A stretch of DNA of 64,000 bases from Alphaproteobacteria bacterium (GTDB taxonomy: Bacteria > Pseudomonadota > Alphaproteobacteria > UBA828): contig CAXXVO010000017.1 in assembly GCA_963422645.2 (NCBI GenBank), positions 192,001 through 256,000 on the forward strand, in the 5' to 3' direction. This document shows positions 1,480 to 57,453 of the stretch, piece after piece. The number at the start of each line of letters is the position of its first letter. Within the stretch, counting starts at the first letter, position 1. The notes under the pieces are model-generated. The model made no database searches, was not told the DNA's origin, and was given only the letters and a program-made list of their open reading frames with translations. The position numbers were made by a program, and so were the translations under genes.

Positions 1480-2728
1480 CTACACCTCTGCCGCGGCGAG
1501 CAGAGACGCGTTGCCACCCGCCGCCGTGGTGTCAACGCAGAGGTGGCGCTCCAGCACATGGTGTTCGGGCGCGTCAGGCTCCGTGATCAGCGGCAGGATC
1601 GGACCGGGGCGACGAGCGAGCGCAACACGCATTGCCGCCAGCGCATCGCGATCCGCGACGCAGGCGACGGCGGCGATGCCGGGCAGGGTGAAGAGCGCGC
1701 CCGGCGCGACCTGACCGTCGAGCACGACCACGAGGGGATCGGTCGCGTGAGCGGTGAGCGCCGCGCTCGCACCGTCGGCGAGCGCCACCACGGCGTTTCC
1801 CGCTTCGCGGGCCGCCGCGACCTGCGCGCGCACCGCCTCGGCGCCGGGGCCGAGGCAGAGCACCACGCCACGGGGCACGAACGAGAGCCGGTTGGATTCG
1901 CCCGTCGGGCCGGGGAGGTCCAGCGGTGCGAAGCGGCCGTCGTCTCCACGGTGCGTCCCTGCCGGGAGGGCGCGTTCGGCGTCGGCGATGGCGGCATCGA
2001 GCAACGCCTCGTTGATCACCGCGCCCGAAGGCCGGCCTCCGGCCGGGGCGGTCCCGCCCGTGAGACGACCTACGTAGTGCGGGCCTCCCGCCTTCGGCCC
2101 GGTGCCGCTAAGGCCTTCGCCGCCGAAGGGCTGCGAGCCCACCACCGCGCCGATCTGGTTGCGATTGACGTAGATGTTGCCCGCGCGCACGCGATCCACG
2201 ATGTGCTGCACGCGGTCGTCGATGCGGGTGTGCAGGCCGAAGGTGAGCCCGTAGCCGGCCCCGTTGACGGCATCGACGACGGCGTCGATCTCGTCGGCGC
2301 CGAAGCTCGCGACGTGCAGCACCGGCCCGAAGATTTCCTCGTCGAGCGCCTCGATGCCGGTGACCCTGAGCAGTGTCGGCGGCACGAAGGTGCCGTCCCC
2401 CGGCGCCGCGAGCCGCTTGAGCAGGCGTCCTTCCCGCTCGGCCTCCACGCAGTGCGCCTCGATGCGGTCCCGCGCGTCCGTGTCGATGACTGGGCCTATG
2501 TCGGTGACGAGGTCCCAGGGGTCGCCGATGTGAAGCGCGTCCATGGCGCCGAACAGCATCTCCAGAATCCGCTCCTCGACCTCGCGCTGGATATAGAGGA
2601 CGCGCAGCGCCGAGCAGCGCTGGCCGGCACTCTGGAACGCGGAGGCGACGATATCGCGCACCGCCTGCTCGGGCAGCGCGGTGGAATCGACGATCATCGC
2701 GTTGAGCCCGCCGGTCTCCGCGATCAAC
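1480..2728 (-). pseudogene. putA: 3' fragment of bifunctional PutA (P5C dehydrogenase part), 5' part removed at IS21
   Basis: IAETGGLNAMIVDSTALPEQ, SAFQSAGQRCSALR, GPKAGGPHY, DTTAAGGNASLL; begins mid-domain exactly at the IS21 end. Confidence 0.9.
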
Positions 2729-2930
2729 TGTCAATCGGCTTTCAATACTGACCCCCGATCGGCGTGCAAAATTGACCCCCCTGAGTGGCACGGCGGAGGT
2801 TGTCCCGGTAGCCAATAGGGGGGACCCGCGCGGCTTCGTGTGGCGCCCTGCGCTACGCGGAGCGAAGCCGCGTGGGGGGTCCCTGTTGGCCCACCGGGGC
2901 AACCGGGCCGCAAGGGAGGCCGGCGGCGGG

Positions 2931-3659
2931 TCAGGAGCGGTTCTTGAAGCGCCAGCTCTCGTTGCCGGTCTCGATGATCTCGCAATGATGGGTGAGGCGA
3001 TCGAGCAGCGCTGTGGTCATCTTGGGGTCGCCGAAGACGGATGGCCATTCGCCGAAGGCGAGGTTTGTGGTGATGACGATCGAGGTGCGCTCGTAGAGCC
3101 GGCTCATCAGATGGAAGAGCAGCTGCCCACCGGCCTGGGCGAAGGGCAGGTAGCCGAGCTCGTCGAGGATGACGAAGTCGCGGCGGACGAGCTGGTCTGC
3201 AGTGCGGCCCTGGCGTCCGGCGCGAAGCTCGGCCTCGAGGAGGTTGACCAGGTCGACGACGTTGTAGCACCGGCCGCGCGCGCCCTTGCGGATGCAGGAC
3301 CGCGCGATGGCGACGGCGAGATGGGTCTTGCCGGTACCGGTGCCGCCGACCAGCACGATGTTGCGTTTGCCCTCGAGGAAGCCGCCGCCGGCGAGCTCCT
3401 GGATCAGGGGCTCGTTGACCGGCGAGGCGGCGAAGTCGAAGTCGGCCAGCTCCTTGACCGTCGGCAGCTTGGCGGAGGCCATCTGGTACTTGATCGAGCG
3501 GGCCCTCTTGTCGGCGATCTCGACCTGCAGCAGCGTACCGATGATCTGTTGCACCGGATGGCGGCGCTTGAGCCCGTCGGCAAGGATGTCGTCGTAAGCG
3601 GCGCGCATACCTGCGAGCTTCAGCTGGGTCATCATCTCCAGCACATCATGACGCTCCAT
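2931..3659 (-). CDS. istB: IS21 helper ATPase IstB
   Basis: Walker [24 protein letters not shown]. Confidence 0.95.
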
Positions 3660-5160
3660 GACCGGCCTCCCTCAGGCTGTCGTAGCGCTGACAGTCGGCT
3701 ACCGGCTTGTGGCGAAGCTGCAGGCCCTCGGGCGTCGGGATGATTGCCGGCGGTGCCGGCTGGCGCTGCCGGGCGAGGATGTTGAGCACCACGTCGGCGC
3801 TGCAGGCACCGCAGTCGAGCGTCTCGGCACAGGCCGCCTCAACCGCCTCCAGTCCGTCCTCCAGCACCGCCGCGAGCACCTTGACGAACTGCCGGTCGCC
3901 GTCGTCGTGGCCCGCGAGCCGGGTTCGCAGGCGGCCGAGCGCGTTGGGCAACTGCCAGTCCTTGAAGGGCGCGCCATTGCGTAGCGCGCCGGGCTTCCGC
4001 GTCAGGATCGGCACGTAATGCCACGGATCGTAGACGAACCGGCCGCGCCCGAAGCTGCGGGGGTGCTCGGCAACGGTCTCGCCGTCCTGGCGGATGACGA
4101 TCCGATCGGCATAGGCCCGCACGTCCACCGGCCGGCCGACGGCGCGGGCCGCGACGCTGTACTGGTTGTTGTCGAAGCGCACCAGACAGGTCTTCGAGAC
4201 CGACACCTCGCTGGCATGGAAGCCGTCGAAGGGGCCGCGATACGCCATCAGGAAGGGCTGCTCCTCCTCGAACACCTGCCACACCGTCTTGCCCGGGATT
4301 GTCGGATGCGGATGCTTCTTGGCGTCCTCGATGCACCGATCCATCAGCCACTCGTTGATCTCGGCGTAGGAGCGGCCCCGCGGGATGGGCACGAACAGGC
4401 GGCCGCGAAGGTCACCCACCTGCTTCTCGACCTGCCCCTTCTCCCAGCCAGCCCCTGGCGTGCACGCCACAGGCTCCACCAGATGGTGCGAGCACAGCTC
4501 CTGGAAGCGGCGGTTGTAGTCCCGCTTCTTGCCCACGAAGATCGTGCTCACCGCCGTCTTCATGTTGTCGTAGATGCCCCGCCGGCAGACCCCGCCGAAG
4601 AAGCGGAAGGCACGCTCGTGCGCCTCGAAGACCATCTCCTGGCTCTCGCGGGGAAAGATCTGGACCAGATACATCCGGCTGTGGCACAGCCGCATGTGCG
4701 CCGCCTTCACCCTGGTCGTCGCGCCCGACAGACGCGCGTACTCGTGGCTCCAGTCGAACTGGTAGGCCTCGCCGGGATCGAAGATCAGCGGCACATAGGC
4801 CTGCGCCGGCGACAACAGCCGCCACCGGCGCCGCCAGGCCCTGGCATAGCGGCGAACCGCGTCATAGCCGCCCTTGTAGCCCAGCGACACAAGGTCTTCA
4901 TGAATCCGCAGAAGAGACAGCCGATCCTTGCGTGCCTTCTTCTCGTTGGCCTTCAGCTGGCGCTCAAGCTCCTCCACCCACAGCCCAAGCTTCGGCATCG
5001 GCTGGATCTTGCGCTCGTAGCTGTGCGAGGTCGCATCGCCCCGCACCACCTTGCGTATCGTGTTCTTGGAAACCCTCAAATCCCGGGCGAGCTTCTTGAT
5101 CGGAACGCCCTTCACCAGATGATCCCGACGGATCTTCGCGATCGTTTCCACAACCAGCAT
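3646..5160 (-). CDS. istA: IS21 transposase IstA
   Basis: [25 protein letters not shown] motifs; ATG at 5160. Confidence 0.95.
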
Positions 5161-5362
5161 CTCCCCCACCACCCCGTCCGTCCAAACGACGAGGTGTGTT
5201 CATGGACACAAATCCAAGGGGGTCAATTTTGGACGCCGATCACCCCCAATAGGGGGTCACTTTTCCACGCTTAACAACACATAGTCTACGACATCGACGG
5301 GGCCTCGGAATCCGCGCGGCTCGTGTCACCTAAAATCAGCAGAGGTCAGGAAGTCTGAGTCT

Positions 5363-7739: not shown

Positions 7740-8849
7740 ATGAACATGCCAACGATGAAAATGCACCTCGACCTGCTGCCCGATTTCCTGCGCGGCACCG
7801 CCTTTCTCGGCACTGGCGGCGGCGGCGATCCCTATGTCGGCGGGCTGATCCTGCGCCAGAAGCTGGAGGAAGGCGCCGACATCACGATCAAGGACCCGAT
7901 GGAGCTCGACGACGACGACTTCGTCGTCTCGGTCGCCAACATGGGCGCGCCGACCGTGATGGTCGAGAAGATCCCGAGCGCGCACGCCATGGTGGAGTGC
8001 CTGCGCTCGATCGAGCACGAGCTGGGCCGCACGGCCACCGCCCTGATCGCCGCCGAGGCCGGCGGCATCAACGGCACGCTGCCCATGGTGATCGGCGCCA
8101 TGACCGGGCTCCCGGTGGTGGACGGCGACGGCATGGGGCGCGCCTTCCCCGAGCTACAGATGTGCACCTTCGGCGTCTACGGTGTGCCTGCGTCTCCCAT
8201 CGTGCTGCGCGACGAGCACGGCAACGAGGTCATCGTGCGCGCCCGCAGCAATCTCGAATCCGAGTGGTTCGCACGGGTGGTGTGCACCCGCATGGGCACA
8301 AAGTCGGAGATCGCGCTCTACGCCATGTCGGGCAAGGAGGCGAAGGAGACCGGCGTGCTCTACACCACGACGCTCGCCATGGAGATCGGCCGCTCCATCC
8401 GCGAGGCGCGCGAGACCCAGAGCGACCCCTTCGCCGGGCTCCAGCACTACTTCCAGACCTCCCGCGACAAGCGCTTCTGCGCGGTGCTCTTCGAGGGCAA
8501 GGTGGTGGACCTCCTGCGCGAGACAACCAGCGGCTGGGCCATCGGGCGGGTGATCTTCGAGGGCATCGGCACGAACACGGGGCAGCAATTAGAGGTACGC
8601 TTCCAGAACGAATTTCTGGTCGCTCAACAGGGCGAGCGCACGCTCGGCATGGTGCCGGACCTGATCTGCATCCTCGATCAGGAGAACGCGGAGCCGATCA
8701 CCACCGAGGGGCTCAAGTACGGCCAGCGGGTGCGCGTGGTGGGGGTCAGTGTGCCGCCGGTGATGCGCACGCCCGAGGCGCTCGAGGTGTTCGGCCCCAA
8801 GTATTTCGGGATCGCCGACGTCTACACGCCAATCGAAGAGCTGGTCTGA
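7740..8849 (+). CDS. DUF917 family protein
   Basis: LGTGGGGDP, EAGGIN, DGDGMGRAFPELQM, FQNEFL, PDLI motifs; AGGAG RBS; usual partner of the upstream hydantoinase-like gene. Confidence 0.9.
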   Translation: MNMPTMKMHLDLLPDFLRGTAFLGTGGGGDPYVGGLILRQKLEEGADITIKDPMELDDDDFVVSVANMGAPTVMVEKIPSAHAMVECLRSIEHELGRTATALIAAEAGGINGTLPMVIGAMTGLPVVDGDGMGRAFPELQMCTFGVYGVPASPIVLRDEHGNEVIVRARSNLESEWFARVVCTRMGTKSEIALYAMSGKEAKETGVLYTTTLAMEIGRSIREARETQSDPFAGLQHYFQTSRDKRFCAVLFEGKVVDLLRETTSGWAIGRVIFEGIGTNTGQQLEVRFQNEFLVAQQGERTLGMVPDLICILDQENAEPITTEGLKYGQRVRVVGVSVPPVMRTPEALEVFGPKYFGIADVYTPIEELV

Positions 8850-9052
8850 GCGCCGCGCGGCCGAACTTCGACCCGCACCTAAAACACCTCTCCCTGTCCC
8901 ATATGTCCGCTACGATCATAGCATACTGTAATTGCAGCCACTTTGAATTGTCAGGCGCTATCTCGCAAGCGTATCGTCAGCGGATTCATTGCAACGCTTG
9001 CGCTTTCCTGCGCGGCTTCGTCGCTGCCGGCCTGCGTATTCGTTCGGTATCC

Positions 9053-9174
9053 GTAAGCGTTCGTTCAGGCCGTGGAAGGGTACGCCGGCATTGTGTCCGC
9101 TCAAACGCATTCCCGACCGCGACCGCTGAGACTCTAGCGATTGAGGGGTAACCATCCGGCGTAGGCCGCCTGTA
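9053..9174. mobile_element. Two tandem IS66-like terminal stubs
   Basis: GTAAGCGTTCGTTCAGGCCG at 9053 and GTAACCATCCGGCGTAGGCCG at 9148 resemble GTAA-starting IS66 IRs; no transposase remains. Confidence 0.5.
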
Positions 9175-9185
9175 TGTTGTTAAGC
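9175..9185. repeat. Left half of an IS21 terminal IR split by IS110 (continues at 10894-10913)
   Basis: TGTTGTTAAGC joined to GTGGAAGATTGACCCC matches the IS21 copy-1 IR TGTTGTTAAGCGTGGAAAAGTGACCCC at 25 of 27 positions. Confidence 0.8.
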
Positions 9186-9289
9186 TTCCACCGGCGCGGC
9201 GCTCCGGCTCGGTCGCGGGAGTAACGGGGGCTTGTGTCTGCGACGCCTCGGTCGTGAACTGGCGGCGGGTGGGGTGAAGAGGCCGTTCG

Positions 9290-9425
9290 TGCACTGGCGT
9301 GCTGTAGCGGCACCCGCTGTTAAGCTTGGCCCGAACCATTTTGTCGGCTCCGGTCACTGATGGCGCGGGTTTCCCGCGACCTCGTTCAAGAGAATGGGAC
9401 TTCGACCATGGTTCCTCCCCGCTCG
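9290..9425 (+). ncRNA. Putative bridge RNA of the IS110 element (boundaries approximate)
   Basis: TGTTAAG at 9318-9324 equals the target left arm plus core; TCAAGAG at 9386-9392 equals the donor left arm plus core; each is followed by a TGG...CCA hairpin. Confidence 0.6.
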
Positions 9426-9455
9426 CGACGGAGATGAAAGGCGGGAGGATGTTCC

Positions 9456-10874
9456 ATGGCGCGCAAGTCTCGAAGAACCCGTCGCCTCAGGGTGGTGAAC
9501 CCTGACTGCGCAGGGATCGACATCGGCAAGGACCGGCACTTCGTGGCGGTCGAGGCGGAACGCAGCGATGAGCCGGTGCGTTCGTTCGGCTCCTTTACCC
9601 GCGATCTGGCGGCGATGGCGGCGTGGCTGGCGTCGTGCGGGGTGACGAAGGTCGCAATGGAGTCGACCTCGGTCTACTGGATCCCGGTCTACGAGACGCT
9701 GGAGCGCGCGGGCTTCGAGGTGATGCTGGTGCCGCCGCGCATGACGAAGCAGATCGGCGGGCGCAAGAGCGACGTGCTGGACTGCCAGTGGATCTGGCAG
9801 CTGATGTCCTACGGTCTGCTGCGGGGAGCGTTCCGTCCGGGCGACGAGGTTTGCCCGCTGCGCTCCTACGCCCGCCAGATGAGGCGGCTGACCGAGGACC
9901 GCTCCCGCTGCGTCCTGCACATGCAAAAGGCGCTGACCGAGATGAACGTCAGGCTCGACTCGGTGATCGCCAACATCACGGGACTGACCGGCCAGCGCAT
10001 CCTGCGCGCGATCGTCGACGGCGAGCGTGACCCGGAGCGCCTGGCGACGCTCCGCCACCGGGGCATCAAGGCCGACGCCGATACGATCGCCGCGAGCCTT
10101 CAGGGGACGTGGCGCGAGGAGCATCTCTTCGCCCTCGAACAGGCCATGCAGCGCTACGACTTCCTGACCCGGCAGATCGACGACTGCGAGGCCCGGGTGA
10201 TGGCCGAGGTCGAGCGCCTGACACCGCCGGACGATCCCCCGGAGGGCGGTGCACCGGACCCTGCCCCCGGCACGACCTCGGACACCGCGTCGGGCCGCTC
10301 CGCGAACGCCGCAACCAACGACACCGGCAAGGAGGGCATCCAGCCCCTGGCGTTGCGCAAGATGATGGGCGTCGACCTCACCGCGATCCCCACCGTCGGT
10401 CCCGGTACCGCACTGGTGATCGCCTCGGAGATCGGCCCGGACTTCTCCGCCTTCCCCTCCGCTCAGCACTTCTGCTCCTGGCTTGCGCTCGCGCCGGGAA
10501 CCAGGATCAGCGGCGGCAAGAATCTCCCCGGCAAGTCGCCGAAGGCGGTCAACCCCGTCGGACAGGCCCTGCGCTTGGCGGCCATGGCCGCGCGCCGCAG
10601 CCAGACCTTCATCGGCGCCAAGCACCGCGCAAGGCTCGCCCGAATGGACACCCCCGTCGCGATCAAGGCGACCGCCCGCGAACTCGCCTGTCTGATCTAC
10701 CTCATGGTGACCGAGGGCCAGGAATACGTCGAGCAGGGCATCGGCGCCTACGAGAAGCGGCGCCTCAACAGAAAGTTCGCTCATCTCGACCGCCAAGCCC
10801 AAAAGCTCGGGTTCCAACTCATCCCGAAAACGCAAGGAGAGGAAAAACAGAACCCAATGCCGTCAATCGCTTAG
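9456..10874 (+). CDS. IS110-family DEDD recombinase/transposase
   Basis: GIDIGKD, MESTSVYW, KSDVLD (DEDD); Tnp domain LAPGTRISGG; GGGAGG RBS. Confidence 0.95.
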   Translation: MARKSRRTRRLRVVNPDCAGIDIGKDRHFVAVEAERSDEPVRSFGSFTRDLAAMAAWLASCGVTKVAMESTSVYWIPVYETLERAGFEVMLVPPRMTKQIGGRKSDVLDCQWIWQLMSYGLLRGAFRPGDEVCPLRSYARQMRRLTEDRSRCVLHMQKALTEMNVRLDSVIANITGLTGQRILRAIVDGERDPERLATLRHRGIKADADTIAASLQGTWREEHLFALEQAMQRYDFLTRQIDDCEARVMAEVERLTPPDDPPEGGAPDPAPGTTSDTASGRSANAATNDTGKEGIQPLALRKMMGVDLTAIPTVGPGTALVIASEIGPDFSAFPSAQHFCSWLALAPGTRISGGKNLPGKSPKAVNPVGQALRLAAMAARRSQTFIGAKHRARLARMDTPVAIKATARELACLIYLMVTEGQEYVEQGIGAYEKRRLNRKFAHLDRQAQKLGFQLIPKTQGEEKQNPMPSIA

Positions 10875-11068
10875 GCATCTGTTACTCAAGAGCGTGGAAG
10901 ATTGACCCCTGATTGGAGATGCCGTAATGGGGCTTGGCGCCGGCGTGCAGCGTCTCGGCCTGTCGCGATGACGGCGAATCGGTTGTCGTTGCCCTTACAC
11001 GCGTAGCGTGTTCACGGGGTCTTGCCGCAAGGCGCGCCCCAATTCCTCTGGAGGAAAGGGCAACGACA

Positions 11069-12109
11069 ATGGACGTCTGTATCGGGCTGGATGTATCGCT
11101 GGCAAGCACGGCGGTTTGCGTTCTCGACGAGAAGGGCAAGATCGCGACCGAGGCGCAGGTCGCCAGCACGCCTGAAGCGCTGGTTGGGTTCCTGCACAAG
11201 CTGCCGCACGAGATCACCGCGATCGGTCTCGAGGCCGGTCCCTTGTCCCACTGGTTGCACAAGGGAATGACCGACGCCGGCTTCGAGGCCGTGTTGATGG
11301 AGACCCGGCAGGTAAAGGGTGCGCTGAAGGCCATGCCGATCAAGACCGATCGCCGGGACGCCGAGGGCATCGCACGGCTGTTGCTGATGGGGTGGTTTCG
11401 GCCGGTGCACTGCAAGTCGGTGTCATCGCAAGAGATGCGAGCCCTCCTGACCTCGCGCAAGTCCGTGCTGGACGCGATCATCCGCCTGGAGGTCTCGCTG
11501 CGCGGCGTCCTGCGTAACTTTGGCCTGAAGCTGGGCCTGATCTCGAAGGGCCGCTATGAGGCCCGAGTGCGGGAGTTGGTCGCCGGCAACGCGATGCTGG
11601 AAGCGGCAGCCGAACCGATCCTGGGCGCGCGGGCGGCCCTGCGCCGCGAGTTCGCCGAGCTGGAGAAGCTGGTCCGCACTCTGGCAAGGCAAGACAGGGC
11701 ATGCCGCCTGTTGATGACCATGCCGGGCGTGGGGCATGTCATAGCCCTGACCTTCAAGTCCGCGATCGACGACCCGGAGCGGTTCCGAAGATCGAAGGAT
11801 GTCGGCCCCTGGGTAGGGCTGACGCCGGCGCGGGAGCAGTCCGGGGAGAGGGATATTGTCGGCCGGATCACCAAGGCCGGCGATGCCGGTCTGCGCGCGG
11901 CTCTTTACCAAGCCGCAACGGTGATGCTGAACCGCACAGGGCCGAACTGGCTGAAGGCTTGGGCGCTACGTTTGGCGAAGCACAGGGGCAAGAAGCGCGC
12001 GACCGTTGCCTTGGCCCGGCGCATCGGTGTTGTGCTTCACCGAATGTGGCGGGATGGAACCGAGTTCCGCTTTACGCGCGAGGAAGCGATGGCGCTTCGG
12101 ACGGCATAG
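11069..12109 (+). CDS. IS110/IS1111-family recombinase
   Basis: IGLDVSL, LEAGPLS, KTDRRDA, GLTPAREQSGE; ATG at 11069. Confidence 0.95.
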   Translation: MDVCIGLDVSLASTAVCVLDEKGKIATEAQVASTPEALVGFLHKLPHEITAIGLEAGPLSHWLHKGMTDAGFEAVLMETRQVKGALKAMPIKTDRRDAEGIARLLLMGWFRPVHCKSVSSQEMRALLTSRKSVLDAIIRLEVSLRGVLRNFGLKLGLISKGRYEARVRELVAGNAMLEAAAEPILGARAALRREFAELEKLVRTLARQDRACRLLMTMPGVGHVIALTFKSAIDDPERFRRSKDVGPWVGLTPAREQSGERDIVGRITKAGDAGLRAALYQAATVMLNRTGPNWLKAWALRLAKHRGKKRATVALARRIGVVLHRMWRDGTEFRFTREEAMALRTA

Positions 12110-12184
12110 GCGCGGCTGCATCCCATCGGCAGTCAGCGAGGAGAGGAGGAAAGAGCCGCGCCTGAAGGTGGGCGAGCCACCAAC

Positions 12185-12400
12185 GTCCCCTCGCCGGGAC
12201 GCGGTCCCCGATGATGCACGTGGGCCCACTTGTTTGCCGAACCGGCCTGTCGTGTTCGAGCACGCTGTGGAGATAGGCACTCGGGAACCGATTTGGACTG
12301 GGCATGATGTTGGCAGCCGATGCGCTGACCACGGACAGAAGCGAGAACCCGGCGAAGGACACAAGACGTTGAGCAAGCGCGAGATCGATACGGTCGGCCC
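12185..12400 (+). ncRNA. Putative seekRNA/bridge RNA of the IS1111 element (boundaries approximate)
   Basis: Four guide matches in order: GGGCCCACT 12222-12230, TGGAG 12268-12272, GGCAT 12301-12305, ACAGAAG 12335-12341. Confidence 0.72.
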
Positions 12401-12552
12401 CATTGCACCTGACACCGGCAACCTCCTCCGCGCCTCACCCGGCGCCTCATAGCCAGGCCGAAGGAGCCCCTACACCACGCCAGGAAAACAACTGATTGGC
12501 GCGACAATGATCTATTGAAAATCGAGCTTGACGGGAAACGCCCCATTACAGA

Positions 12553-12632
12553 AGTGGGCCCCTGGGGCCGGACAGTTTCAGGCGGCCGATTTGACCGGCT
12601 TGCGGGACTGCTCCTCCTCGAAACGGTCGGGG
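12553..12632 (-). mobile_element. IS3-family right-end remnant (IR begins at 10914 and is split by IS1111)
   Basis: Minus strand encodes PDRFEEEQSRKPVKSAA* (OrfB-like C-terminus) followed by CTGTCCGGCCCCAGGGGCCCACT; rejoined end reads TGGAGTGGGCCCCTGGGGCCGGACAG. Confidence 0.7.
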
Positions 12633-12939
12633 TGTCAACGCCGGATGAAGATTCGGCCAGAGGGCGGCGCAAAAGACTGCCACTCTGGGTGATGCGTCGT
12701 TGTGACGGTTTTTCGGCGGGCGCGGTCCGTGGAGCCATCCAGAGCTCAAGCGGTCCGCGCGCGCCGGCCGACCGGAGGGCGGCCTACTGGTTTCGGTTTG
12801 TCGAGGTTCAACTTTGCGCCGTCAACGGACACGCCTGATGGCGGGATGACGGTGAGTGCCCGAGCACCGTCACGGCAGGTGGCGGGGGCTGGGGCTGGGC
12901 GCCTTGGCCGATCGGTGTCGGTCGTCGGCGTGCCGGGGT

Positions 12940-13704
12940 TCAGCTTGCGGTCTTGTTCCTGCGTGCACGGCTCTGGCTGAGGCGGTAGCTGTCGCCGTTC
13001 ATCTCGAGGATGTTGACGTGGTGGGTGAGACGATCGAGGAGCGCCCCGGTGAGGCGCTCGGAGCCAAAGGTCTCGGTCCATTCGTCGAAGGGGAGGTTGG
13101 AGGTGATCAGGGTGGCGCCCCGTTCGTAGCGCTGGGAGACCAGCTCGAACAGCAACTCGGCGCCGGTCTTGCTCAGCGGCACGAAGCCGACCTCGTCGAT
13201 GATCAGCAGCTTGAGACTTGCCAGCTGCTTCTGCAGCCGCAGCAGTCGTCATTCGTCACGCGCCTCCATGAGCTCATGCACCAGCGCCGCTGCGGTGATG
13301 AAGCGCACGCTCAGCCCCTTCTGGCAGGCGGCCAGTCCGAGCCCCAGGGCGACATGGCTCTTGCCGGTGCCCGATGGGCCGAGGGCGATGACGTTCTCGC
13401 GCCGCTCGATCCATTCGCAGCGCGCCAACTCCAGCACCCGCGGCTTGTTCAGCGCGGGCATGGCCTTGAAGTCGAAGCTGTCGAGGCTCTTGGCGAGCGG
13501 GAACTTCGCCGCCTTGATGCGCCGCTCGACCATGCGCCGTTCGCGCTCGATCAACTCCAGCTCCGCCAGCCGGGCCAGGAACTGGATATGATCCAGGCCC
13601 TCGGCCGCGCACTGGTGCGCCACTTTCTCGTATTGGCGCAGGAAGGTCGGCAGCTTCAGGGCCTTGAGGCGGTGCGCCAGCAGGATGTGGGGCGTGTCCG
13701 TCAT
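12940..13704 (-). pseudogene. istB: istB with an internal TGA at 13249-13251
   Basis: GPSGTGKSH...LMEARDE*RLLRLQKQLASLKLLIIDEVGF; the frame continues after the stop. Confidence 0.9.
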
Positions 13705-15071
13705 GCCGCGTCCTCCGACAGCAGGCACATGTAGCTGGCCGCCGAGGTCCTGCCGACGGTAGCCTTCGGCAGATAGGGGTAGACATCGAGGTCGAGCTTC
13801 GGCGGGCGCTTCTCGAGGCGGCACAGCACCAGGTGCTTGACCGCGTCGAAGCCTATGGCGCCCAGGCGCAGGGCATCCTTCACTGCGGCGTGGAGATCCT
13901 CCAGCCCGAAGCTCTCCAGCAGCCGCAGGACCTGCACGTACTCCCGCCGCCCCGCCTTGAGCGCGCGTGCCTCCATCAGGCGGCGCAGGGTCTGGAAGGC
14001 GGGCGGCAGGTCCCATCCGGCGAGCGGCGCTGCCTGGTCCAGGGCGCCGATCTTCTGCTCGATCAGGGGCAGATAGTGGATCGGCTCGAAGATCATGTCC
14101 TCACGCTCATAGGACCGGGGATGGCGGGCGATGACGTCTCCGCCACAGCCGATCACCACTCGATCGACGTAACCGCGTACCCAGACGTCACGATGGCCAT
14201 AGGCCACCGGCACCGAGTAGTCGTTGGTCCGATAGCGAACCAGAGACTGCGAGCTGACCTGGCCGGGAGCCTGGTCACAGGCCTCGAAGGGCGTAGCCGG
14301 CGGCGCGGCCATGGCCGCCACATCCCGCGCCAGGCGCTCTCCGATGGTCTCGCGGTGTCCGCGCAGGATATCGCCCTGGCGGCTGTGGCATTGCTCCTCG
14401 AGCCGCAGGTTGAACTCTTCCCAGCTCGCAAACCGTGGCAGCGGCACCATGAAGTTGCGCCGGGCCAGGATGCGCGACACCAGGCAGCGGTCGTTGTCGT
14501 AGAGAACCGATCGGGGAACCCCGCCGAAGAAGGCGAAGGCATGCACATGCCCGTCCATCCACGCCTCGGCCGTCGCCGCAGGGTAGGCCCGCACGTAGCA
14601 GGCGTCGCTGTGCGGAAGATCGAACACGAAGAAGTGCGCCTTGCGCGCGATACCCCCGATCACCGCCCGCGCCTCGCCGAAGTCCGCCTGCCCATGCCCC
14701 GGCGGATGGATCAGCGGCACGAACATCTCTCGCCGCCGGCGCCGATGCTCGCGCACATGATCCTTCACAATCGTGTAGCCGCCGCTGAACCCGTGCTCGG
14801 CCCGAAGACGGTCGAAAATGCGCTTCGCCGTGTGCCGCTGCTTGGGCAGCTGCTCCAGATCGTCCCGCAGCCACCCGTCGATGATCTCGATGAACCCGTC
14901 CAGCTTCGGACGCCGAAGCGGCGCCGTCCGCCGATAGCCCGGCGGCGCCGAAAACTGCAGCATCTTCTTCACGCTCTCGCGTGAAATCCCGAAGTGACGC
15001 GCCGCAGCCCGCTCACTCATCCCGTCCCGGCAGGCGAGACGGACCTTCCGATAAAGTTCCACGGTATGCAT
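13701..15071 (-). pseudogene. istA: istA with a probable in-frame internal deletion
   Basis: YDNDRCLVSRIL runs directly into ARRNFMVP, skipping the KGxVE segment that carries the catalytic Glu (junction near 14465). Confidence 0.75.
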
Positions 15072-15181
15072 GCCCCCGCCCTCCCCGTCGCCGGGAAGGG
15101 CCTATCTGGCAGAGTCTTGCTCCGCCCGCTGCGAGACAATCCCGCCGCTACCGTGGACTAATTTCGCACCGCCGTTTCCAG

Positions 15182-15364
15182 ATCGAAGAGTTCCATTTCT
15201 GCATGGCGCATTTCGACTTCATCATGAAGGTGTCCGCTCCGGACGATGAGTCCGTGAGCGCGTTCGCCATGGCGGTCCGCCGATCCGGAAACGTAACCGC
15301 CAAAGTTACGCGCGCGTTCACGCCGGATGAGTGGGGAAACATCGTGGGCCGTCTTGAGGGTTAG
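15182..15364 (+). pseudogene. GYD-domain protein, 3' fragment truncated by IS21
   Basis: FCMAHFDFIMKVSAPDDESVSAFAMAVRRSGNVTAKVTRAFTPDE. Confidence 0.65.
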
Positions 15365-15570
15365 CCCGAGCTGCGCTTCGGCGCGCCGCGAGCGACGTCC
15401 GTCCTCACCACCCGCAGGTGGCTCCGCGTGCCGGAAAAACGATGATCCGTCAGCGCTTCGGAGTCAGCCCCTCGTTTGACGCCGATCGGTGAGTCAAGTA
15501 GTGTTTTTCTTGGCACTCAAGCACGCGTCAATGGGGCGGTGCGCCTCCACGAGGATGGAGGTGTTTGATG

Positions 15571-17449
15571 GTAACTGCCCAGGTTCTTGCTGTGAAAATT
15601 CTCTGGGATTCGGCACAACGCTACCCACGCGACGCCCGTGTGCTCCTCTGGGGTCGCCGGGTTTCACAGCTCACGATGCCCCTCTTGCGGACTGCGACCG
15701 GTAAGCTACCCCGATGTGGCCCGAAGTCCGCCCGCGCGACGGGCACCGATTTTCATTCTATGGGGTGGTCCAGCACGGCGTCGACCATGATCGTTTATGA
15801 GAATGGCTCCGCTGTTGGAGAACCCGTGCCAGGTGAGCTTACGCGCACTTGACGGTGGCGATGAGCCGATCCGATGGGCTGGTCAGGGCTTCGATGATAT
15901 TCCAGCCCTGCTTTCTGGCGGTGGTGATGACGCTGCGCAGGATGGCGAAGTTCTCGGCCCCCTGCGCGGACCGGAAGCCCCCGGAGATCTTCTGGCGCAG
16001 CTTCATCATCCGAAGGTCGCGCTCGGCCTCGTTGTTCGTGAACCCGACCTCGAGGTCGATCAGGAACCGGAGCACCGCGCATTTGTGGTCGCGCAGCCTC
16101 AAGGCCAGATTGTGACCGATCCTTCGCTTCCGGCGCTTCTTCCTCTTGCCAGGCGAGAACGGTGGTTGGCTCTCGTGAAAGGCCAGCGCATCGGCGATGA
16201 TCTCGTCGTATCGGCGCTCGATCAGCGCCACAAGCCTCGCCGGAACGGCGATATCCTTGTCCAGCGCGATGCGGGCGGCGCGATTGGCTCGGCGCAGGAG
16301 CTGCTGCATCCGCCGGGCCCAAGCCTCCCCTTCGATGTCCACCAGCGCCTGCAACTCCCGCAGGTGATGGGCGTTGCACAGGCCGTGCTCCACCCCTTCC
16401 ATCGCGAAGTACGGCTTCCAGTGATCGTGCACGACGATGCCGGAGACACCCGAGAGCAGGGCGCCGCGCTTGCCGCTGACCCGGTACGCCGCCAGCAGCG
16501 GCGTGCAGATCACATGAAGCCACTGCGTCTGACCGCCGATCCGCAAGCCGGTCTCGTCCATGTGTTTCACCCGCGCCGTGCCCGCCGCCAGGTCCTGTAT
16601 GTGCAAGGCCGCGTCCCGCAGCCGCTCGGCCGCCCTCTCGCTCATCGTCGCCAACGTCGCAGCCGTCACCGGCGCGCCGAAGAGCTCGGCCATCACCTGC
16701 GACAGCCGATCCTCCGGCAGGAAGTGAGCGTGCTGAAGGTAGACCGCCACCCCGGCAATGCGCGGGCCGTACTGCACCGGCGCCGACACCCCGTCGGGGA
16801 ACGCCGCCCGGGTCACCGTCCCGCAATGCCCGCAGCACTTGGCATGCGCCCGGTGCTCGGTCACCTCCAGGGGGCTCGGCTCGGGCAGATCGAACACCTG
16901 GCGGGCGACGGGCGTTCCCGCCCTGGCCGCGTCCGAAAGCGGCGAACCGCATCCCTTGCAGGAAGCCGGGACGTGATCCTTCACCCGATCCGGGTGATCG
17001 GCGCGGCGCAGCGTCTTGCCCTTGTGGCCGGGCTGGCCACCGGGCTTGCGGCCCGATTTGCCGCGCAGGCTTCGGGTTCGCCGCTTCGAATTCGGCTTCC
17101 TCAGCCCATCGCTCGAAGGCGGCTTGCCGCTGTTGAGGCCGAGACGGCGCTCCAACTCCTCGATGCGCTCGACGAGACGCGCGACTTGCTCTTCCAGCCG
17201 CGCGTTCTGCTGCCGAAGCCAGGCATTTTCCTCCCGAAGCCGGGCGTTCTCCTCCTCCAGGCGGGCGATCTTCTGCGCGGGCGTTTCGGGCGCTGCTCCC
17301 GTCGAAGGGCCGCGCGGCGACTCGGGATTGCTCATGTCGTTGTTGAGTCATTTCCCGAAATTCCCGTCAAGCCCTTTCCACCAACTCCGAACGAGAAACG
17401 CCTCAATCCACTGGCCCAAAATGACAAATCAGACGACCTGGGCAGTTAC
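15571..17449 (-). mobile_element. IS66-family single-ORF element, copy 1 (1879 bp)
   Basis: IRs GTAACTGCCCAGGT and ACCTGGGCAGTTAC; 8-bp TSD GTTTGATG at 15563-15570 and 17450-17457. Confidence 0.95.
15839..17335 (-). CDS. IS66 transposase
   Basis: Coiled coil, KPPSSD, zinc finger, HMDETG, TNNEAERDLR. Confidence 0.95.
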   Translation of the reverse strand: MSNPESPRGPSTGAAPETPAQKIARLEEENARLREENAWLRQQNARLEEQVARLVERIEELERRLGLNSGKPPSSDGLRKPNSKRRTRSLRGKSGRKPGGQPGHKGKTLRRADHPDRVKDHVPASCKGCGSPLSDAARAGTPVARQVFDLPEPSPLEVTEHRAHAKCCGHCGTVTRAAFPDGVSAPVQYGPRIAGVAVYLQHAHFLPEDRLSQVMAELFGAPVTAATLATMSERAAERLRDAALHIQDLAAGTARVKHMDETGLRIGGQTQWLHVICTPLLAAYRVSGKRGALLSGVSGIVVHDHWKPYFAMEGVEHGLCNAHHLRELQALVDIEGEAWARRMQQLLRRANRAARIALDKDIAVPARLVALIERRYDEIIADALAFHESQPPFSPGKRKKRRKRRIGHNLALRLRDHKCAVLRFLIDLEVGFTNNEAERDLRMMKLRQKISGGFRSAQGAENFAILRSVITTARKQGWNIIEALTSPSDRLIATVKCA

Positions 17450-17454
17450 GTTTG

Positions 17455-18486
17455 ATGACCCAAGCGGCGGCTGAAGCGCGCTCCGACATTCGAGAACGAG
17501 TGAGCGAGCGGACGATTGCGCTGTACGAAGACGCGCTCGTCTGGGACATGACGCTGCCCTGGCTCCCCTCTTACGCGGACAAGGACGCCACCCTGCCGCG
17601 ATTCCGGGATGCAGGTGTGGATTTCGCGTCCCTTACCGTCAACGACTTTCCGGGTTCGCTCGGGGGCTCCGTGCGGCGGATCGCGGAGGTGACCCGGCAT
17701 ATCCAGGAACGCGCCGACACCCATGTGTTGGTGAAGTCAGTCGACGACATCCTCCAGGCTAAGCAGGATGGAAAATTCGCGCTCGCCTTCAACCTTCAGG
17801 AAACCAACCCGCTCGAAGGCGAGGTCAATTTCGTCCAGACCTATTACGATTTGGGCGTGCGCCACATGCTGCTCGCCTACAACCAGAAGAACCTGGTGGG
17901 CGACGGCTGCTCAGAGCGCACCGATGCCGGCCTGAGCCGCTTCGGAGTGCGCGTCGTGCAGGAAATGAACCGCGTCGGCATGATCGTCGACGGCAGCCAC
18001 ACCGGCTATCGCACGACCATGGAGGCGATGGAGGTGGCGACGGCACCGTTCATCTTCTCGCACAGCCTCGCGAACGCGGTCCACGAGCACTACCGCAACA
18101 TTTGCGACGATCAAATCAAGGCTTGCGCCAAGAGCGGCGGCGTCATCGGCTTCAACGGCGTCGCCTTCTTTCTCGGCGATGAGACGGCGTCGAGCGAGGC
18201 GGTCGTGCGCCATATCGCCCACATCTCGAACCTTGTCGGCCCGGAGCACGTTGGCATCGGCCTCGATTACTGCCGAGATAGCAAGAGTGTCGGGGTCTGG
18301 ACGCTGTCCAATACCGACATGTGGCCGCCCAACAAGGGCGTGCCGTTCGGTGAGACCGCGTTCGTGCAACCCGAGCAGTTGCTCGAGATCACCGACATTC
18401 TGCTTACACGAGGCTACGCGGAGGCGGATGTGCGCGGCATCCTCGGCGAAAACTTCGCCCGGGTCGCGCGACAGGTATGGAAGTGA
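17455..18486 (+). CDS. Membrane dipeptidase (peptidase M19) family protein 1
   Basis: AYNQKN..GDGC, IVDGSH, IFSHS, RNICDDQIKA, HVGIGLDY. Confidence 0.88.
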   Translation: MTQAAAEARSDIRERVSERTIALYEDALVWDMTLPWLPSYADKDATLPRFRDAGVDFASLTVNDFPGSLGGSVRRIAEVTRHIQERADTHVLVKSVDDILQAKQDGKFALAFNLQETNPLEGEVNFVQTYYDLGVRHMLLAYNQKNLVGDGCSERTDAGLSRFGVRVVQEMNRVGMIVDGSHTGYRTTMEAMEVATAPFIFSHSLANAVHEHYRNICDDQIKACAKSGGVIGFNGVAFFLGDETASSEAVVRHIAHISNLVGPEHVGIGLDYCRDSKSVGVWTLSNTDMWPPNKGVPFGETAFVQPEQLLEITDILLTRGYAEADVRGILGENFARVARQVWK

Positions 18487-23108: not shown

Positions 23109-24001
23109 ATGACATTGCTGATGGTCCGCGGTCTTCGCACCCATATCCCGACGCGCCACGGGGTCTTGCGAGCGGTCGACGGAATCGACCTCAGCATCGA
23201 TGCGGGCGAGATCGTCGGCCTGGTCGGTGAGAGCGGCTGCGGCAAGACGATGGCCGCCTACTCCATTTTGGGGCTGGTGCCGCGCCCGGCGACTGTCGTG
23301 GACGGTCAGATCATGTTTCAGGGCGAAGACCTGCGCGGCAAGAGCCCGGAACAGCTGCGGCAATTGCGCGGTTCGGCCCTCTCGATGGTGTTCCAGGAGC
23401 CGCTGACGGCGCTCAATCCACTGTTCTCCGTTGGCACGCAGCTCCGCGATGTGCTGGTCCAGCATCAGCGGCTCTCGCCGCGTGCCGTGCGCGCGCGCAT
23501 CCACGAGCTGCTCGACCATGTCGGCATTCCCGAGCCCCGCCATGTGGCCAGGACCCATCCGTTCCAGCTCAGCGGCGGCATGCGGCAGCGCGTGCTGATC
23601 GCGATGGCTATCGCCTGCGGGCCGCGTCTCGTGATCGCCGACGAGCCAACGACAGCGCTCGACACGACGATCCAGGCGCAGATCCTCGATCTCCTGCGTC
23701 GGCTCGTGGAGGAAGATCACATCGCGCTGCTACTCATCACCCATGACCTCGGCGTCATCGCCGAGATGTGCCAGCGCGTCTACGTGATGTATGCCGGCGA
23801 GATCGTCGAGCACGCGCCGGTGCGCGACCTCTTCGCCTCCTCCCTTCACCCCTATTCCGACGCCCTCCTGCGCTGCACGCCGGCGCTGGCGGACCGGGAC
23901 CGGGAGCTCGAGAGCATCGAGGGAATCGTTCCCGACGCGATTGGGCCTGCAGACCATTGCGCGTTCGCCGATCGCTGCCCCCATGCCGCGTCGCGCCCGA
24001 G
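23109..24001 (+). pseudogene. ABC ATPase, DppD-like, C-terminus cut by IS21
   Basis: [22 protein letters not shown]; ends at CAFADRCPHA and reads into the IS. Confidence 0.88.
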
Positions 24002-24203
24002 TGTCAATCGGCTTTCAATACTGACCCCCGATCGGCGTGCAAAATTGACCCCCCTGAGTGGCACGGCGGAGGTTGTCCCGGTAGCCAATAGGGGGGACCC
24101 GCGCGGCTTCGTGTGGCGCCCTGCGCTACGCGGAGCGAAGCCGCGTGGGGGGTCCCTGTTGGCCCACCGGGGCAACCGGGCCGCAAGGGAGGCCGGCGGC
24201 GGG

Positions 24204-24932
24204 TCAGGAGCGGTTCTTGAAGCGCCAGCTCTCGTTGCCGGTCTCGATGATCTCGCAATGATGGGTGAGGCGATCGAGCAGCGCTGTGGTCATCTTGGGG
24301 TCGCCGAAGACGGATGGCCATTCGCCGAAGGCGAGGTTTGTGGTGATGACGATCGAGGTGCGCTCGTAGAGCCGGCTCATCAGATGGAAGAGCAGCTGCC
24401 CACCGGCCTGGGCGAAGGGCAGGTAGCCGAGCTCGTCGAGGATGACGAAGTCGCGGCGGACGAGCTGGTCTGCAGTGCGGCCCTGGCGTCCGGCGCGAAG
24501 CTCGGCCTCGAGGAGGTTGACCAGGTCGACGACGTTGTAGCACCGGCCGCGCGCGCCCTTGCGGATGCAGGACCGCGCGATGGCGACGGCGAGATGGGTC
24601 TTGCCGGTACCGGTGCCGCCGACCAGCACGATGTTGCGTTTGCCCTCGAGGAAGCCGCCGCCGGCGAGCTCCTGGATCAGGGGCTCGTTGACCGGCGAGG
24701 CGGCGAAGTCGAAGTCGGCCAGCTCCTTGACCGTCGGCAGCTTGGCGGAGGCCATCTGGTACTTGATCGAGCGGGCCCTCTTGTCGGCGATCTCGACCTG
24801 CAGCAGCGTACCGATGATCTGTTGCACCGGATGGCGGCGCTTGAGCCCGTCGGCAAGGATGTCGTCGTAAGCGGCGCGCATACCTGCGAGCTTCAGCTGG
24901 GTCATCATCTCCAGCACATCATGACGCTCCAT
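24204..24932 (-). CDS. istB: IstB ATPase
   Basis: Same protein as copy 1. Confidence 0.95.
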
Positions 24933-26433
24933 GACCGGCCTCCCTCAGGCTGTCGTAGCGCTGACAGTCGGCTACCGGCTTGTGGCGAAGCTGCAGGCCC
25001 TCGGGCGTCGGGATGATTGCCGGCGGTGCCGGCTGGCGCTGCCGGGCGAGGATGTTGAGCACCACGTCGGCGCTGCAGGCACCGCAGTCGAGCGTCTCGG
25101 CACAGGCCGCCTCAACCGCCTCCAGTCCGTCCTCCAGCACCGCCGCGAGCACCTTGACGAACTGCCGGTCGCCGTCGTCGTGGCCCGCGAGCCGGGTTCG
25201 CAGGCGGCCGAGCGCGTTGGGCAACTGCCAGTCCTTGAAGGGCGCGCCATTGCGTAGCGCGCCGGGCTTCCGCGTCAGGATCGGCACGTAATGCCACGGA
25301 TCGTAGACGAACCGGCCGCGCCCGAAGCTGCGGGGGTGCTCGGCAACGGTCTCGCCGTCCTGGCGGATGACGATCCGATCGGCATAGGCCCGCACGTCCA
25401 CCGGCCGGCCGACGGCGCGGGCCGCGACGCTGTACTGGTTGTTGTCGAAGCGCACCAGACAGGTCTTCGAGACCGACACCTCGCTGGCATGGAAGCCGTC
25501 GAAGGGGCCGCGATACGCCATCAGGAAGGGCTGCTCCTCCTCGAACACCTGCCACACCGTCTTGCCCGGGATTGTCGGATGCGGATGCTTCTTGGCGTCC
25601 TCGATGCACCGATCCATCAGCCACTCGTTGATCTCGGCGTAGGAGCGGCCCCGCGGGATGGGCACGAACAGGCGGCCGCGAAGGTCACCCACCTGCTTCT
25701 CGACCTGCCCCTTCTCCCAGCCAGCCCCTGGCGTGCACGCCACAGGCTCCACCAGATGGTGCGAGCACAGCTCCTGGAAGCGGCGGTTGTAGTCCCGCTT
25801 CTTGCCCACGAAGATCGTGCTCACCGCCGTCTTCATGTTGTCGTAGATGCCCCGCCGGCAGACCCCGCCGAAGAAGCGGAAGGCACGCTCGTGCGCCTCG
25901 AAGACCATCTCCTGGCTCTCGCGGGGAAAGATCTGGACCAGATACATCCGGCTGTGGCACAGCCGCATGTGCGCCGCCTTCACCCTGGTCGTCGCGCCCG
26001 ACAGACGCGCGTACTCGTGGCTCCAGTCGAACTGGTAGGCCTCGCCGGGATCGAAGATCAGCGGCACATAGGCCTGCGCCGGCGACAACAGCCGCCACCG
26101 GCGCCGCCAGGCCCTGGCATAGCGGCGAACCGCGTCATAGCCGCCCTTGTAGCCCAGCGACACAAGGTCTTCATGAATCCGCAGAAGAGACAGCCGATCC
26201 TTGCGTGCCTTCTTCTCGTTGGCCTTCAGCTGGCGCTCAAGCTCCTCCACCCACAGCCCAAGCTTCGGCATCGGCTGGATCTTGCGCTCGTAGCTGTGCG
26301 AGGTCGCATCGCCCCGCACCACCTTGCGTATCGTGTTCTTGGAAACCCTCAAATCCCGGGCGAGCTTCTTGATCGGAACGCCCTTCACCAGATGATCCCG
26401 ACGGATCTTCGCGATCGTTTCCACAACCAGCAT
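24919..26433 (-). CDS. istA: IstA transposase
   Basis: Same protein as copy 1. Confidence 0.95.
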
Positions 26434-26552
26434 CTCCCCCACCACCCCGTCCGTCCAAACGACGAGGTGTGTTCATGGACACAAATCCAAGGGGGTCAAT
26501 TTTGGACGCCGATCACCCCCAATAGGGGGTCACTTTTCCACGCTTAACAACA

Positions 26553-57409: not shown

Positions 57410-57453
57410 GAATAAAGTATCAGTGAGGCCTTGACCGCCGCGGCGACTCCACT

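Follow-up and report, generated by a model that had tools for sequence, protein, structure and literature searches.

Insertion sequences nested within one another's ends in an alphaproteobacterial genome, with two IS110-family elements in the tips of an IS21 and an IS3 element

The stretch of DNA analysed here, in the following called the window, comprises 64 kb (positions 192,001 to 256,000 of contig CAXXVO010000017.1, or C18:192001-256000 of the alphaproteobacterial genome G000, which has 5.9 Mb in 23 contigs) and contains a pile of insertion sequences (IS) between positions 9036 and 15180. Very likely, with a probability of about 85%, this pile is a true nest in which eight IS layers, seven of them firm, were stacked by successive end-specific insertions, and in which at least one deletion or rearrangement took place afterwards. 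Each layer begins within the preceding one, at a distance of 5 to 83 nt from its outer end, and the junctions at fixed positions were found again at other loci as well as in other genomes. Because these junction positions recur elsewhere, the pile should not be a product of chance. An earlier reading of the window, made from the letters alone (the sequence-only reading), had described about seven layers formed by serial insertion into IS ends. Checked against the window and the whole genome, its coordinates were right for every layer, and all layers could be identified; of the eight that we count, the one starting at 9036 is doubtful.

According to the course of events that we propose, an IS66-family end (layer 1) would have taken up a second IS66-family element, of which the left repeat is left over (layer 2), and this in turn an IS21-family element (layer 3), the left repeat of which starts 27 nt inside layer 2. 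Two elements would then have entered this IS21 repeat, an IS110-group element, here named A, after nt 10 (layer 4) and an IS3-family element, here named X, after nt 31 (layer 5). An IS1111-group element, B, would have inserted into the repeat of X after nt 5 (layer 6), and a second IS21 element, IS21b, would have inserted 83 nt inside X (layer 7). A and B would choose their sites via guide segments of a non-coding bridge or seeker RNA, whereas X would recognize a site next to the motif TGACCCC(C) of IS21 repeats by a protein-based preference. The right-hand parts of all host elements and the 5' part of a GYD-domain gene would have been lost afterwards, for which a single event starting from the right end of IS21b would suffice, be it an adjacent deletion or a recombination with some other copy. 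Target preference accounts for three of the layers; no evidence of specificity was found for the steps IS66 into IS66, IS21 into IS66 and IS21b into X.

The pile was checked by a BLAST search of positions 8850-15500 against the whole of G000, which yielded three multi-copy blocks and short unique joints between them, and the boundaries were set from the other copies in the genome (Table 1; contigs are those of G000 unless another genome is named). Profile searches used Pfam and NCBIfam with their curated cut-offs, and Rfam on positions 8800-15600 at E values up to 1. Matches of putative RNA guides were tested against 2000 shuffled sequences, and the figure given is the number of shuffles that reached the match. 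For a survey of the genus, 30 loci were fetched for relatives of A and 30 for relatives of B. The transposases of A and B, IstA of IS21b, OrfB of X and the IS66 transposase TnpC all exceeded the curated cut-offs in Pfam and NCBIfam. The truncated IstB fragment of IS21b exceeded its Pfam cut-off and reached 148 bits against an NCBIfam cut-off of 200.

The left junction of A is marked by the sequence TGTTGTTAAGC, which corresponds to the first 11 nt of IS21-family left repeats; its last C (nt 9185) is ambiguous, as it equals the first base of A. This 11-mer occurs 83 times in G000. At seventy sites it reads on as GTGGAAAAGTGACCCCC..., the left-hand repeat of an IS21 element of 2,551 bp, here called Y, which encodes both IstA (285 bits, profile positions 2-291) and IstB (PF01695, E=3e-75). 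A follows at five sites, and other sequences, mostly other IS21-type repeats, at the remaining eight. Since the 11-mer is mostly found uninterrupted in IS21 ends, it belongs to the host repeat and A lies inside it; the alternative that TGTTGTTAAGC is part of A was rejected on account of the 70 uninterrupted IS21 ends that carry it. As had been read from the sequence, the IS21 repeat at 9175 is split by an IS110 element: A interrupts it after nt 10, it continues to the right of A, and 31 nt are kept in total.

The transposase gene of A (9456-10874, 472 aa) encodes a DEDD RuvC-like domain (PF01548, E=1e-21) together with a C-terminal Transposase_20 domain (PF02371, E=5.5e-12), and it matches the profile NF033542, "IS110 family RNA-guided transposase", with 260 bits against a cut-off of 140. 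Its non-coding DNA is arranged as in the IS110 group, with 271 nt (9185-9455) upstream of the open reading frame (ORF) versus 18 nt (10875-10892) downstream. Other copies of A in G000 are located at C3:154834-153108 and C5:21779-23512; the block that they have in common with the window extends over 9175-10893. All five left ends of A in this genome follow TGTTGTTAAGC, and the DNA further outside is unrelated. In the genus survey, 18 of the 30 A-type loci contain the start of the element, which gives 23 left junctions. Fifteen of these follow TGyTGyTAAGC within unrelated outer flanks (four in G000, 11 in six other genomes), seven are head-to-tail tandems, and one lies inside the guide-coding DNA of another copy.

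Two segments in the upstream non-coding DNA of A are candidate guides. The putative left target guide TGTTAAG (9318-9324) has the sequence of nt 4-10 in the IS21 repeat, with the AG core at its end (19 of 2000 shuffles), and the putative left donor guide TCAAGAG (9386-9392) is identical to the right end of A itself, likewise ending in AG (13 of 2000). The relative A2 (C8:237548), 76% identical to A, sits in a different, palindromic target; at the aligned guide positions it has CCCATAG, its own left flank, and TCGAGAG, its own right end.

Self-targeting is seen at locus L034, where an A-type copy is inserted in the left-guide DNA of another copy (...CCCGATGTTAAGC|). In the relative G004 up to 38 A-type matches were counted, many of them in tandem arrays with 1,707 bp per unit (for instance at C1:4340628-4344354, 3079788-3083514 and 2231555-2238837 of that genome; loci L044 and L049).

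The IS3 end at 10914, which the sequence-only reading took to be split by an IS1111 element, is confirmed by a full copy of X that provides the uninterrupted repeat. This copy (C5:89524-90776, 1,253 bp) encodes an OrfA with a helix-turn-helix domain (HTH, PF01527) and an OrfB with an rve domain (PF00665), reaches 295 bits with NF033516 (cut-off 160), has the ends TGGAG...CTCCA, and is itself located in a right repeat of Y. Target duplications of 3 bp accompany X on C5 (GAT) and on C8 (TAT). The TGGAG at 10914 represents the first 5 nt of the X repeat, as given by the uninterrupted ends at C5:89524, C5:90776 and C7:230783. The uninterrupted sequence TGGAGTGGGCCCCTGGGG occurs three times in G000, and two of these occurrences bound the full copy of X. 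In the window 83 nt of X are present, split after nt 5 by B. The right-repeat side matches C7:230775-230865 over 91 nt with 94.5% identity and positions 1178-1253 of the X reference with 84%. We had also considered an IS21-type repeat starting at TGTCAATCGG as the target of B; this was rejected when the full IS3 copy with its 3-bp duplication was found.

X has a favoured position as well. Thirteen of the 25 distinct uninterrupted X ends in the genus (loci L081-L110) are located about 31 nt inside an IS21-type repeat, and within these repeats the preferred site, which includes that of the window copy, is just past TGACCCC(C) plus 3 nt. X itself thus seems to be an end-seeking element with a presumably protein-encoded preference for IS ends.

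The transposase ORF of B (11069-12109) is followed by 445 non-coding nt and preceded by 150, the layout of the IS1111 group. It matches PF02371 (E=7e-24), PF01548 (E=1.5e-16) and NF033542 (241 bits versus a cut-off of 140). B has subterminal inverted repeats, CCGTAATGGGGC (10922-10933) and GCCCCATTACAG (12540-12551), which are complementary at 11 of 12 positions and conserved in relatives. The window thus holds, as had been claimed, two different elements of the RNA-guided IS110 family, each with an AG core at both of its junctions. Their distance, given earlier as 23 bp, comes to 23-25 bp, the exact value varying with the treatment of the core and of one ambiguous C. All six copies of B in G000 follow TGGAG and four of them precede TGGGCCCCTGGGG; conversely, of the seven X ends carrying TGGGCCCCTGGGG, four hold B. 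In the four canonical copies B lies after nt 5 of the X repeat and has one orientation relative to each repeat. One copy of X (C8:525514-526763, within C8:523866-528400) has B in both terminal repeats, in mirror orientation, and also in the genome G010 B adjoins an X repeat.

For B the predicted right target guide GGGCCCACT (12222-12230) is, over 9 nt, the complement of AG+TGGGCCC, which was reached in 4 of 2000 shuffles. The predicted left donor guide ACAGAAG (12335-12341) equals the right end of B. Read together with the candidate left target guide (12268-12272), the two target guides give TGGAG / AGTGGGCCC, the first 12 nt of the IS3 repeat. Relatives of B show that guide regions change along with the flanks, in at least five guide/target pairs. 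The elements B2-B4, which are 85% identical to B, carry TTTGAACCCT, GATCAG and ACGGAAG at the guide positions of B, are located in GATCAG^GTTCAAA and have the right end ACGGAAG; in the left donor guide an A is replaced by G in the relatives together with the right end of the element. Six copies in G032 combine the guide CTGCGTCT with the flanks ...ACCAAG^ACGCAG, a relative in G011 combines GCGAGCGGCT with the flank ^CCGCTCGC, and one in G004 combines CGGTGCT and GGCAAAG with ...GGCAAAG^CACCG.

A relative of B with these last guides occupies the orfA start of X, about 87 nt inside this element, at ...CCCATGGCAAAG^CACCG (G004:C1:4871667-4872063, locus L056; G013:C1:408981-409236, loci L059, L065 and L105). 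Judged by guides and flanks, the orfA start of X appears to be another IS-directed target that is reached through changed guides. The two non-canonical copies of B in G000 (C3:194354-192710 and C8:417705-419356) are located in a left repeat of Y near CCCCCTATTGG^GGG. They carry the TGGAG of X along, and their right end is truncated or replaced; they may be the result of off-target or illegitimate events.

At the left edge of the pile the IS66 layers are less uniform in quality. The stub at 9148, previously described as a second IS66-like stub, is well assigned: positions 9148-9173 (GTAACC...CCTGT) agree in 26 of 27 nt with the left end of a full IS66-family element (C9:654273-656916). The latter encodes TnpA and TnpC (476 bits on NF033517, with PF03050 and associated domains matched) and carries, at C9:656916, a right repeat that is related. 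Several other genomes of the genus contain these 26-27 nt as well, with 96-100% identity. For the stub at 9053, which had likewise been called IS66-like, the assignment stands but is weaker. Its first 25 nt (9053-9077) are all identical to the end of a broken IS66-family element in the relative G013 (G013:C1:647213), near which a C-terminal TnpC match on the opposite strand is weak and below the cut-off (E=3.7e-4). In addition, 36 nt are 89% identical to C9:156251 and C5:428494, two 70-bp stubs in G000, and a shared internal motif of the TCTAGCGATTGAGGG type is present as well.

The possible further stub at 9036 is doubtful as an IS66-like end, and this part of the earlier claim did not hold beyond a similarity in motif with the right repeat of the IS66 element (C9:656916) and with stacked motifs of the GTAA type (C5:428480, C9:156240 and C10:385776). 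When 8850-9174 is compared with these loci on C9, C5 and C10, only a block of about 50 bp of GTAA-type motifs aligns. Upstream, the homology to non-IS DNA of the relative G004 stops at about 9033, which fits a boundary at 9036.

Motifs of this type, 11-17 bp long and stacked in twos or threes, stand directly before an IS66-type end at C5:428480-428530, C9:156240-156290, C10:385776-385740 (minus strand) and window positions 9036-9080. They could have arisen by repeated insertion into one tip followed by recombination, or they could be an unrecognised feature of such ends. Still further to the left, a non-coding segment of 135 bp (8894-9032) is 76-79% identical to unrelated places in G003, G004 and G013; its counterpart in G004 lies about 0.8 kb from an IS66 TnpC gene.

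The second IS21 element, IS21b, has ends that are confirmed by four other left-end and three other right-end contexts. It had been called defective, and indeed IS21b is now a dead element according to its reading frames. Compared with C8:602327-602450, its istA (13701-15071) has an in-frame deletion of 126 bp at about 14465. Its istB, which starts at 13704, contains a premature TGA at 13249-13251 where the copies on C8 and C7 have CGA; the TGA is also present in contigs of two public runs. IstA accordingly matches NF033546 with 213 bits (cut-off 160) over profile positions 2-193 of 294 only, and of IstB the N-terminal half matches NF038214/PF01695. The 42 lost residues of IstA presumably include the third catalytic residue of the DDE motif. 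Among the copies compared in G000 no intact IS21b was seen. The 126-bp deletion is common to IS21b and the copy at C7:231961-234105. The copy on C8 keeps the segment, has a frameshift of 1 nt, and is interrupted at the point that corresponds to window position 13780 by an insertion with GTAA as its first bases, at a guess another IS66-type end.

IS21-family elements produce target duplications of 4-8 bp. No such duplication is present at IS21b, the left flank being ...GGTCGGGG and the right flank GATCGAAG..., which we read as the trace of a later deletion or rearrangement and not as a sign that IS21b does not belong to the IS21 family. Furthermore, the GYD gene next to its right end covers only positions 38-90 of the 91 of the Pfam GYD profile. 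The closest relative with this gene, G005, has it in full (99 aa). Neither the 5' part of the gene nor the G005 neighbours of both flanks gave a BLAST match anywhere in G000, and the two flanks of the pile are about 520 kb apart in G005. All stubs are oriented alike, with the outer end to the left, and a single end survives of each host element, as had been noted before. Since nested insertions push each remainder to the right of IS21b, one loss at this place would remove all of them together. Of the adjacent deletions postulated earlier, at least one, or else a rearrangement, is supported by the missing duplication and the missing GYD 5' part; several deletions are possible but not required. 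An attempt to interpret the window and the C7 locus as the two halves of one IS21b insertion in X was abandoned, because the stub in the window is of the right-repeat type and the remnant on C7 is without a left-repeat side.

Table 1. Layers of the pile and its right-hand boundary (positions in the window)
Feature	Position	Strand	Basis
Possible IS66-like end stub, 17 bp, weak	9036..9052	+	motif resemblance (GTATTCGTTCGG...)
IS66-family element end, 95 bp, outer end at 9053, cut at 9147	9053..9147	+	matches in the genome and in G013
IS66-family left-repeat stub, 26 nt certain, nt 9174 ambiguous	9148..9174	+	match to C9:654273
IS21-family left repeat, nt 1-10 (TGTTGTTAAG), ending in the AG core 9183-9184	9175..9184	+	
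Element A, IS110 group, about 1.71 kb including the right AG core 10891-10892	9185..10892	+	
IS21-family left repeat, nt 11-31 (CGTGGAAGATTGACCCCTGAT)	10893..10913	+	as to the right of the C5 copy of A
Terminal repeat of IS3-family X, nt 1-5 (TGGAG), ending in the AG core 10917-10918	10914..10918	+	
Element B, IS1111 group, 1,636 bp including the right AG core 12553-12554	10919..12554	+	
IS3-family X, right-repeat side, nt 6-83; remainder of X missing	12555..12632	+	
IS21b, IS21 family, 2,548 bp, defective	12633..15180	-	ends from other contexts
GYD-domain gene, 3' part, truncated at the IS21b right end; bounds the pile on the right	15181..15364	+	

A number of observations weigh against the interpretation as a chain of end-specific, partly RNA-guided insertions. 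For A, the right target and right donor guides were not found, with or without G:U pairs (1653 and 195 of 2000 shuffles), and the flanks to its right are of two kinds, GTGGAAGA... and ACGCTTTG..., which are unrelated; recognition by A on the right side may be weak. For B, the left target guide of 5 nt is not significant alone (939 of 2000), the right donor guide was not resolved in the guide-match analysis, and two of the six copies, the non-canonical ones on C3 and at C8:417705, have aberrant right junctions. Among its relatives the right guide of B3 fits the flank only with a bulge of 1 nt, and loci L063 and L069 fit poorly. Minimum free energy (MFE) folding of the non-coding regions of A and B was no better than that of shuffles (z = +0.9 and +0.5), and the Rfam search detected no bridge-RNA family, the sole match being a chance-level H19_2 (19.9 bits versus a gathering score of 50). 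Twelve of the 25 X ends lie elsewhere than in IS21 repeats. When the stubs were compared with full-length IS by BLAST against the rest of the genome, all were matched except those at 9036 and 9053: for the former there is no full-length counterpart in G000, for the latter no full-length copy with a matching end. Finally, the junction contigs described below cross 9174/9175 and 15180/15181 by 29-30 nt, which is 1-2 nt short of the 31 nt demanded for bridging, and among the contigs listed none spans the whole pile, nor is a spanning read shown.

The most far-reaching alternative holds that IS110-family elements act as functional hyperparasites, or as a brake favoured by the host, that disable the ends of DDE-type IS, and that the locus is a dedicated IS sink. 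This we consider unlikely. By their position A would cut off the outermost 10 nt of its host repeat and B the outermost 5 nt, which should inactivate the end; B is present at both ends of one X copy and occupies four of the seven X ends; and IS4321/IS5075 may serve as a precedent, judging by the title of the report. However, A was found in none of the 70 left ends of the abundant element Y, although their first 18 nt are identical to its target in the window, and an IS110-family element Z with 47 full copies as well as the relatives A2 and B2-B4 are located in non-IS targets. Moreover, the IS load of this genome is still extreme, and a multi-copy, selectively neutral and horizontally travelling site, that is a safe harbour, explains the targeting equally well. 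What stands of the earlier proposal is that A, B and X live in the tips of other IS. Thus, "hyperparasite" holds as a description, not as a rule for the family, and a disabling of the host end would follow from the position of the guests. The pile itself is real, but no special sink is needed for it, as three of its layers, including X, are explained by the choice of target.

More tentatively than the nest itself, and as a rather speculative extension of it, one may think of a three-level chain of parasites in this genus, in which IS21 repeats are colonised at fixed positions by the IS3 element X, through a protein-based choice, and by the RNA-guided A, X is colonised at nt 5 by the RNA-guided B, and relatives of B have been re-aimed, among other targets to the orfA start of X. 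Should insertion indeed silence the host end, such RNA-guided elements would act in nature as programmable antagonists of DDE transposons and would influence which IS families are able to burst.

Z, which has a length of about 1,770 bp, forms head-to-tail arrays of two to five copies with a period of about 1,768 bp (C11:48110-56956, C16:27174-32482, C10:44758-50068, C8:169699-173239 and 727925-731467, C5:476526-480068); single copies have varied, mostly non-IS flanks.

A pile-up by chance, with unrelated IS landing on one another and no target preference involved, appears very improbable. One might expect such events in G000: 27% of its bases lie in repeats (identity of 95% or higher along 300 bp or more), 18% belong to families with more than 20 copies, at least 150 matches to IS66-family DDE transposases were counted, and other nests exist. 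Also the steps IS21 into IS66 and IS21b into X are without demonstrated specificity. Against this stand five successive layers that start 5-83 nt inside an IS tip, 15 contexts from seven genomes in which A splits an IS21 repeat at nt 10/11, the recurrence of B at nt 5 of X repeats and of X at nt ~31 of IS21 repeats (13 of 25 ends), and the co-variation of guides and flanks. An origin by chance is largely refuted by the recurrence, and since the outer flanks differ, the recurrent junctions are unlikely to be copies of a single ancestral segment.

Least probable of all is an artefact of assembly, in which the order of the layers would result from a mis-join of repeats. The region is nearly all multi-copy, a marker-based estimate of "contamination" amounts to 8.5%, and no spanning read or contig was seen. 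However, the stubs form unique joints, and the split repeats continue exactly on the far side. Read support was judged from Logan contigs of public runs (22 runs listed, none on record as RNA), which are built on a graph of 31-nt words, the same length being required for bridging. In an independent isolate run of 2023 one contig covers 8755-9204 without any difference and includes both IS66 stubs, the IS21 tip and 20 nt of A; contigs from two runs cover 15152-15566/15570. In the isolate run the unique flank has a depth of about 9, B one of 24-66, and A and IS21b for the most part about 21-25, with 49 in one bin of A. These depths fit the copy numbers in the assembly, which counts against an artefact. 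Hundreds of identical IS of 1.9-2.5 kb lie inside contigs, which presumably points to a long-read assembly. A sponge-metagenome run, X2 (share 0.27), contains contigs 95-99% like A, B and IS21b. Its depth is 6.9 on the flank bin 8700-8933, with none on 8934-9167 or 15018-15700, so that X2 contains some of the left flank but shows none of the junctions of the pile; parts without cover in the runs X19 and X2 are not evidence of absence.

Repeated sequence makes up 24% of the 64-kb window, and 68 matches to the IS110 family were found in G000. Two further copies of the element Y, which has about 70 copies, are located in the window at ~2720-5270 and ~23990-26540. Likewise, an IS66-family element with about 110 copies (ends GGTAACTGCCCAGG...) is present twice, at ~15570-17455 and ~55510-57420, one of these only 390 bp to the right of the pile. 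Other IS nests exist in G000, for example around C5:221100.

A and B provide a natural example of guides that appear to read the outermost nucleotides of other IS, here of an IS21 and an IS3 element, with several naturally reprogrammed relatives in one genus and on more than one level. They may be of use for deriving guide rules at an AG core and for studying weak recognition on the right side, tandem re-insertion and the self-targeting of guide DNA. They also bear on the question whether insertion of IS into IS limits IS bursts in an extremely IS-rich genome such as this one.

The behaviour of these elements is of a known kind. The closest precedent is provided by IS4321 and IS5075, IS1111-group elements that reportedly target the terminal repeats of Tn21-type transposons. 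B resembles them in belonging to the IS1111 group, in its subterminal inverted repeats and in its fixed position and orientation within the terminal repeat of another element. It differs in its host, which is an IS3-family element and not one of the Tn3 family, while A belongs to the IS110 group and has an IS21-family host. The transposase of B is less than 60% identical to the Klebsiella/Escherichia plasmid copies that dominate its plasmid matches, which we assume to include IS5075/IS4321; the closest plasmid match, from Rhodobacteraceae, is 73% identical.

That members of the IS110 family code for a bridge or seeker RNA by which the target is chosen, and that they are reprogrammed in nature, is established according to the excerpts of two reports at hand (Durrant et al. 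2024, PMC11208160; Siddiquee et al. 2024, PMC11187229). In the same excerpts, IS110-group elements have the RNA-coding region upstream of the gene and IS1111-group elements have it downstream; the bottom strand is the partner of the left guides, the top strand that of the right guides, and the core takes part in every pairing. Compared with these descriptions of IS621 and other bridge-RNA or seekRNA elements, A and B share the DEDD transposase and the position of the non-coding DNA (upstream in A, downstream in B), their predicted left guides, core included, have the top-strand sequence of the left target and the left donor, and their relatives seem to be reprogrammed in the same natural way. 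This agreement in guide layout was counted in favour of an RNA-guided choice of sites. Unlike IS621, which in these excerpts has the core CT and REP-like targets, A and B have the core AG and are directed, as far as can be told from DNA, to the tips of IS.

In the open-access papers that were searched, no article turned up that describes IS110-family elements inserting into the repeats of IS21 or IS3; ISfinder and the supplements of papers may already list such targets. We therefore regard the pile as a tidy natural example of a known behaviour, and not as a new mechanism or principle. Tandem IS110 modules and the local expansion of IS110 loci are the subject of a preprint, to go by the portion available (bioRxiv 10.64898/2026.08.14.744561). 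The head-to-tail arrays of Z in G000 and of A-type copies in G004 and G005 are similar to the loci described there. Whereas that portion deals with the growth of IS110 loci, the pile described here is a nest of five IS families in which IS110-family elements are the guests.

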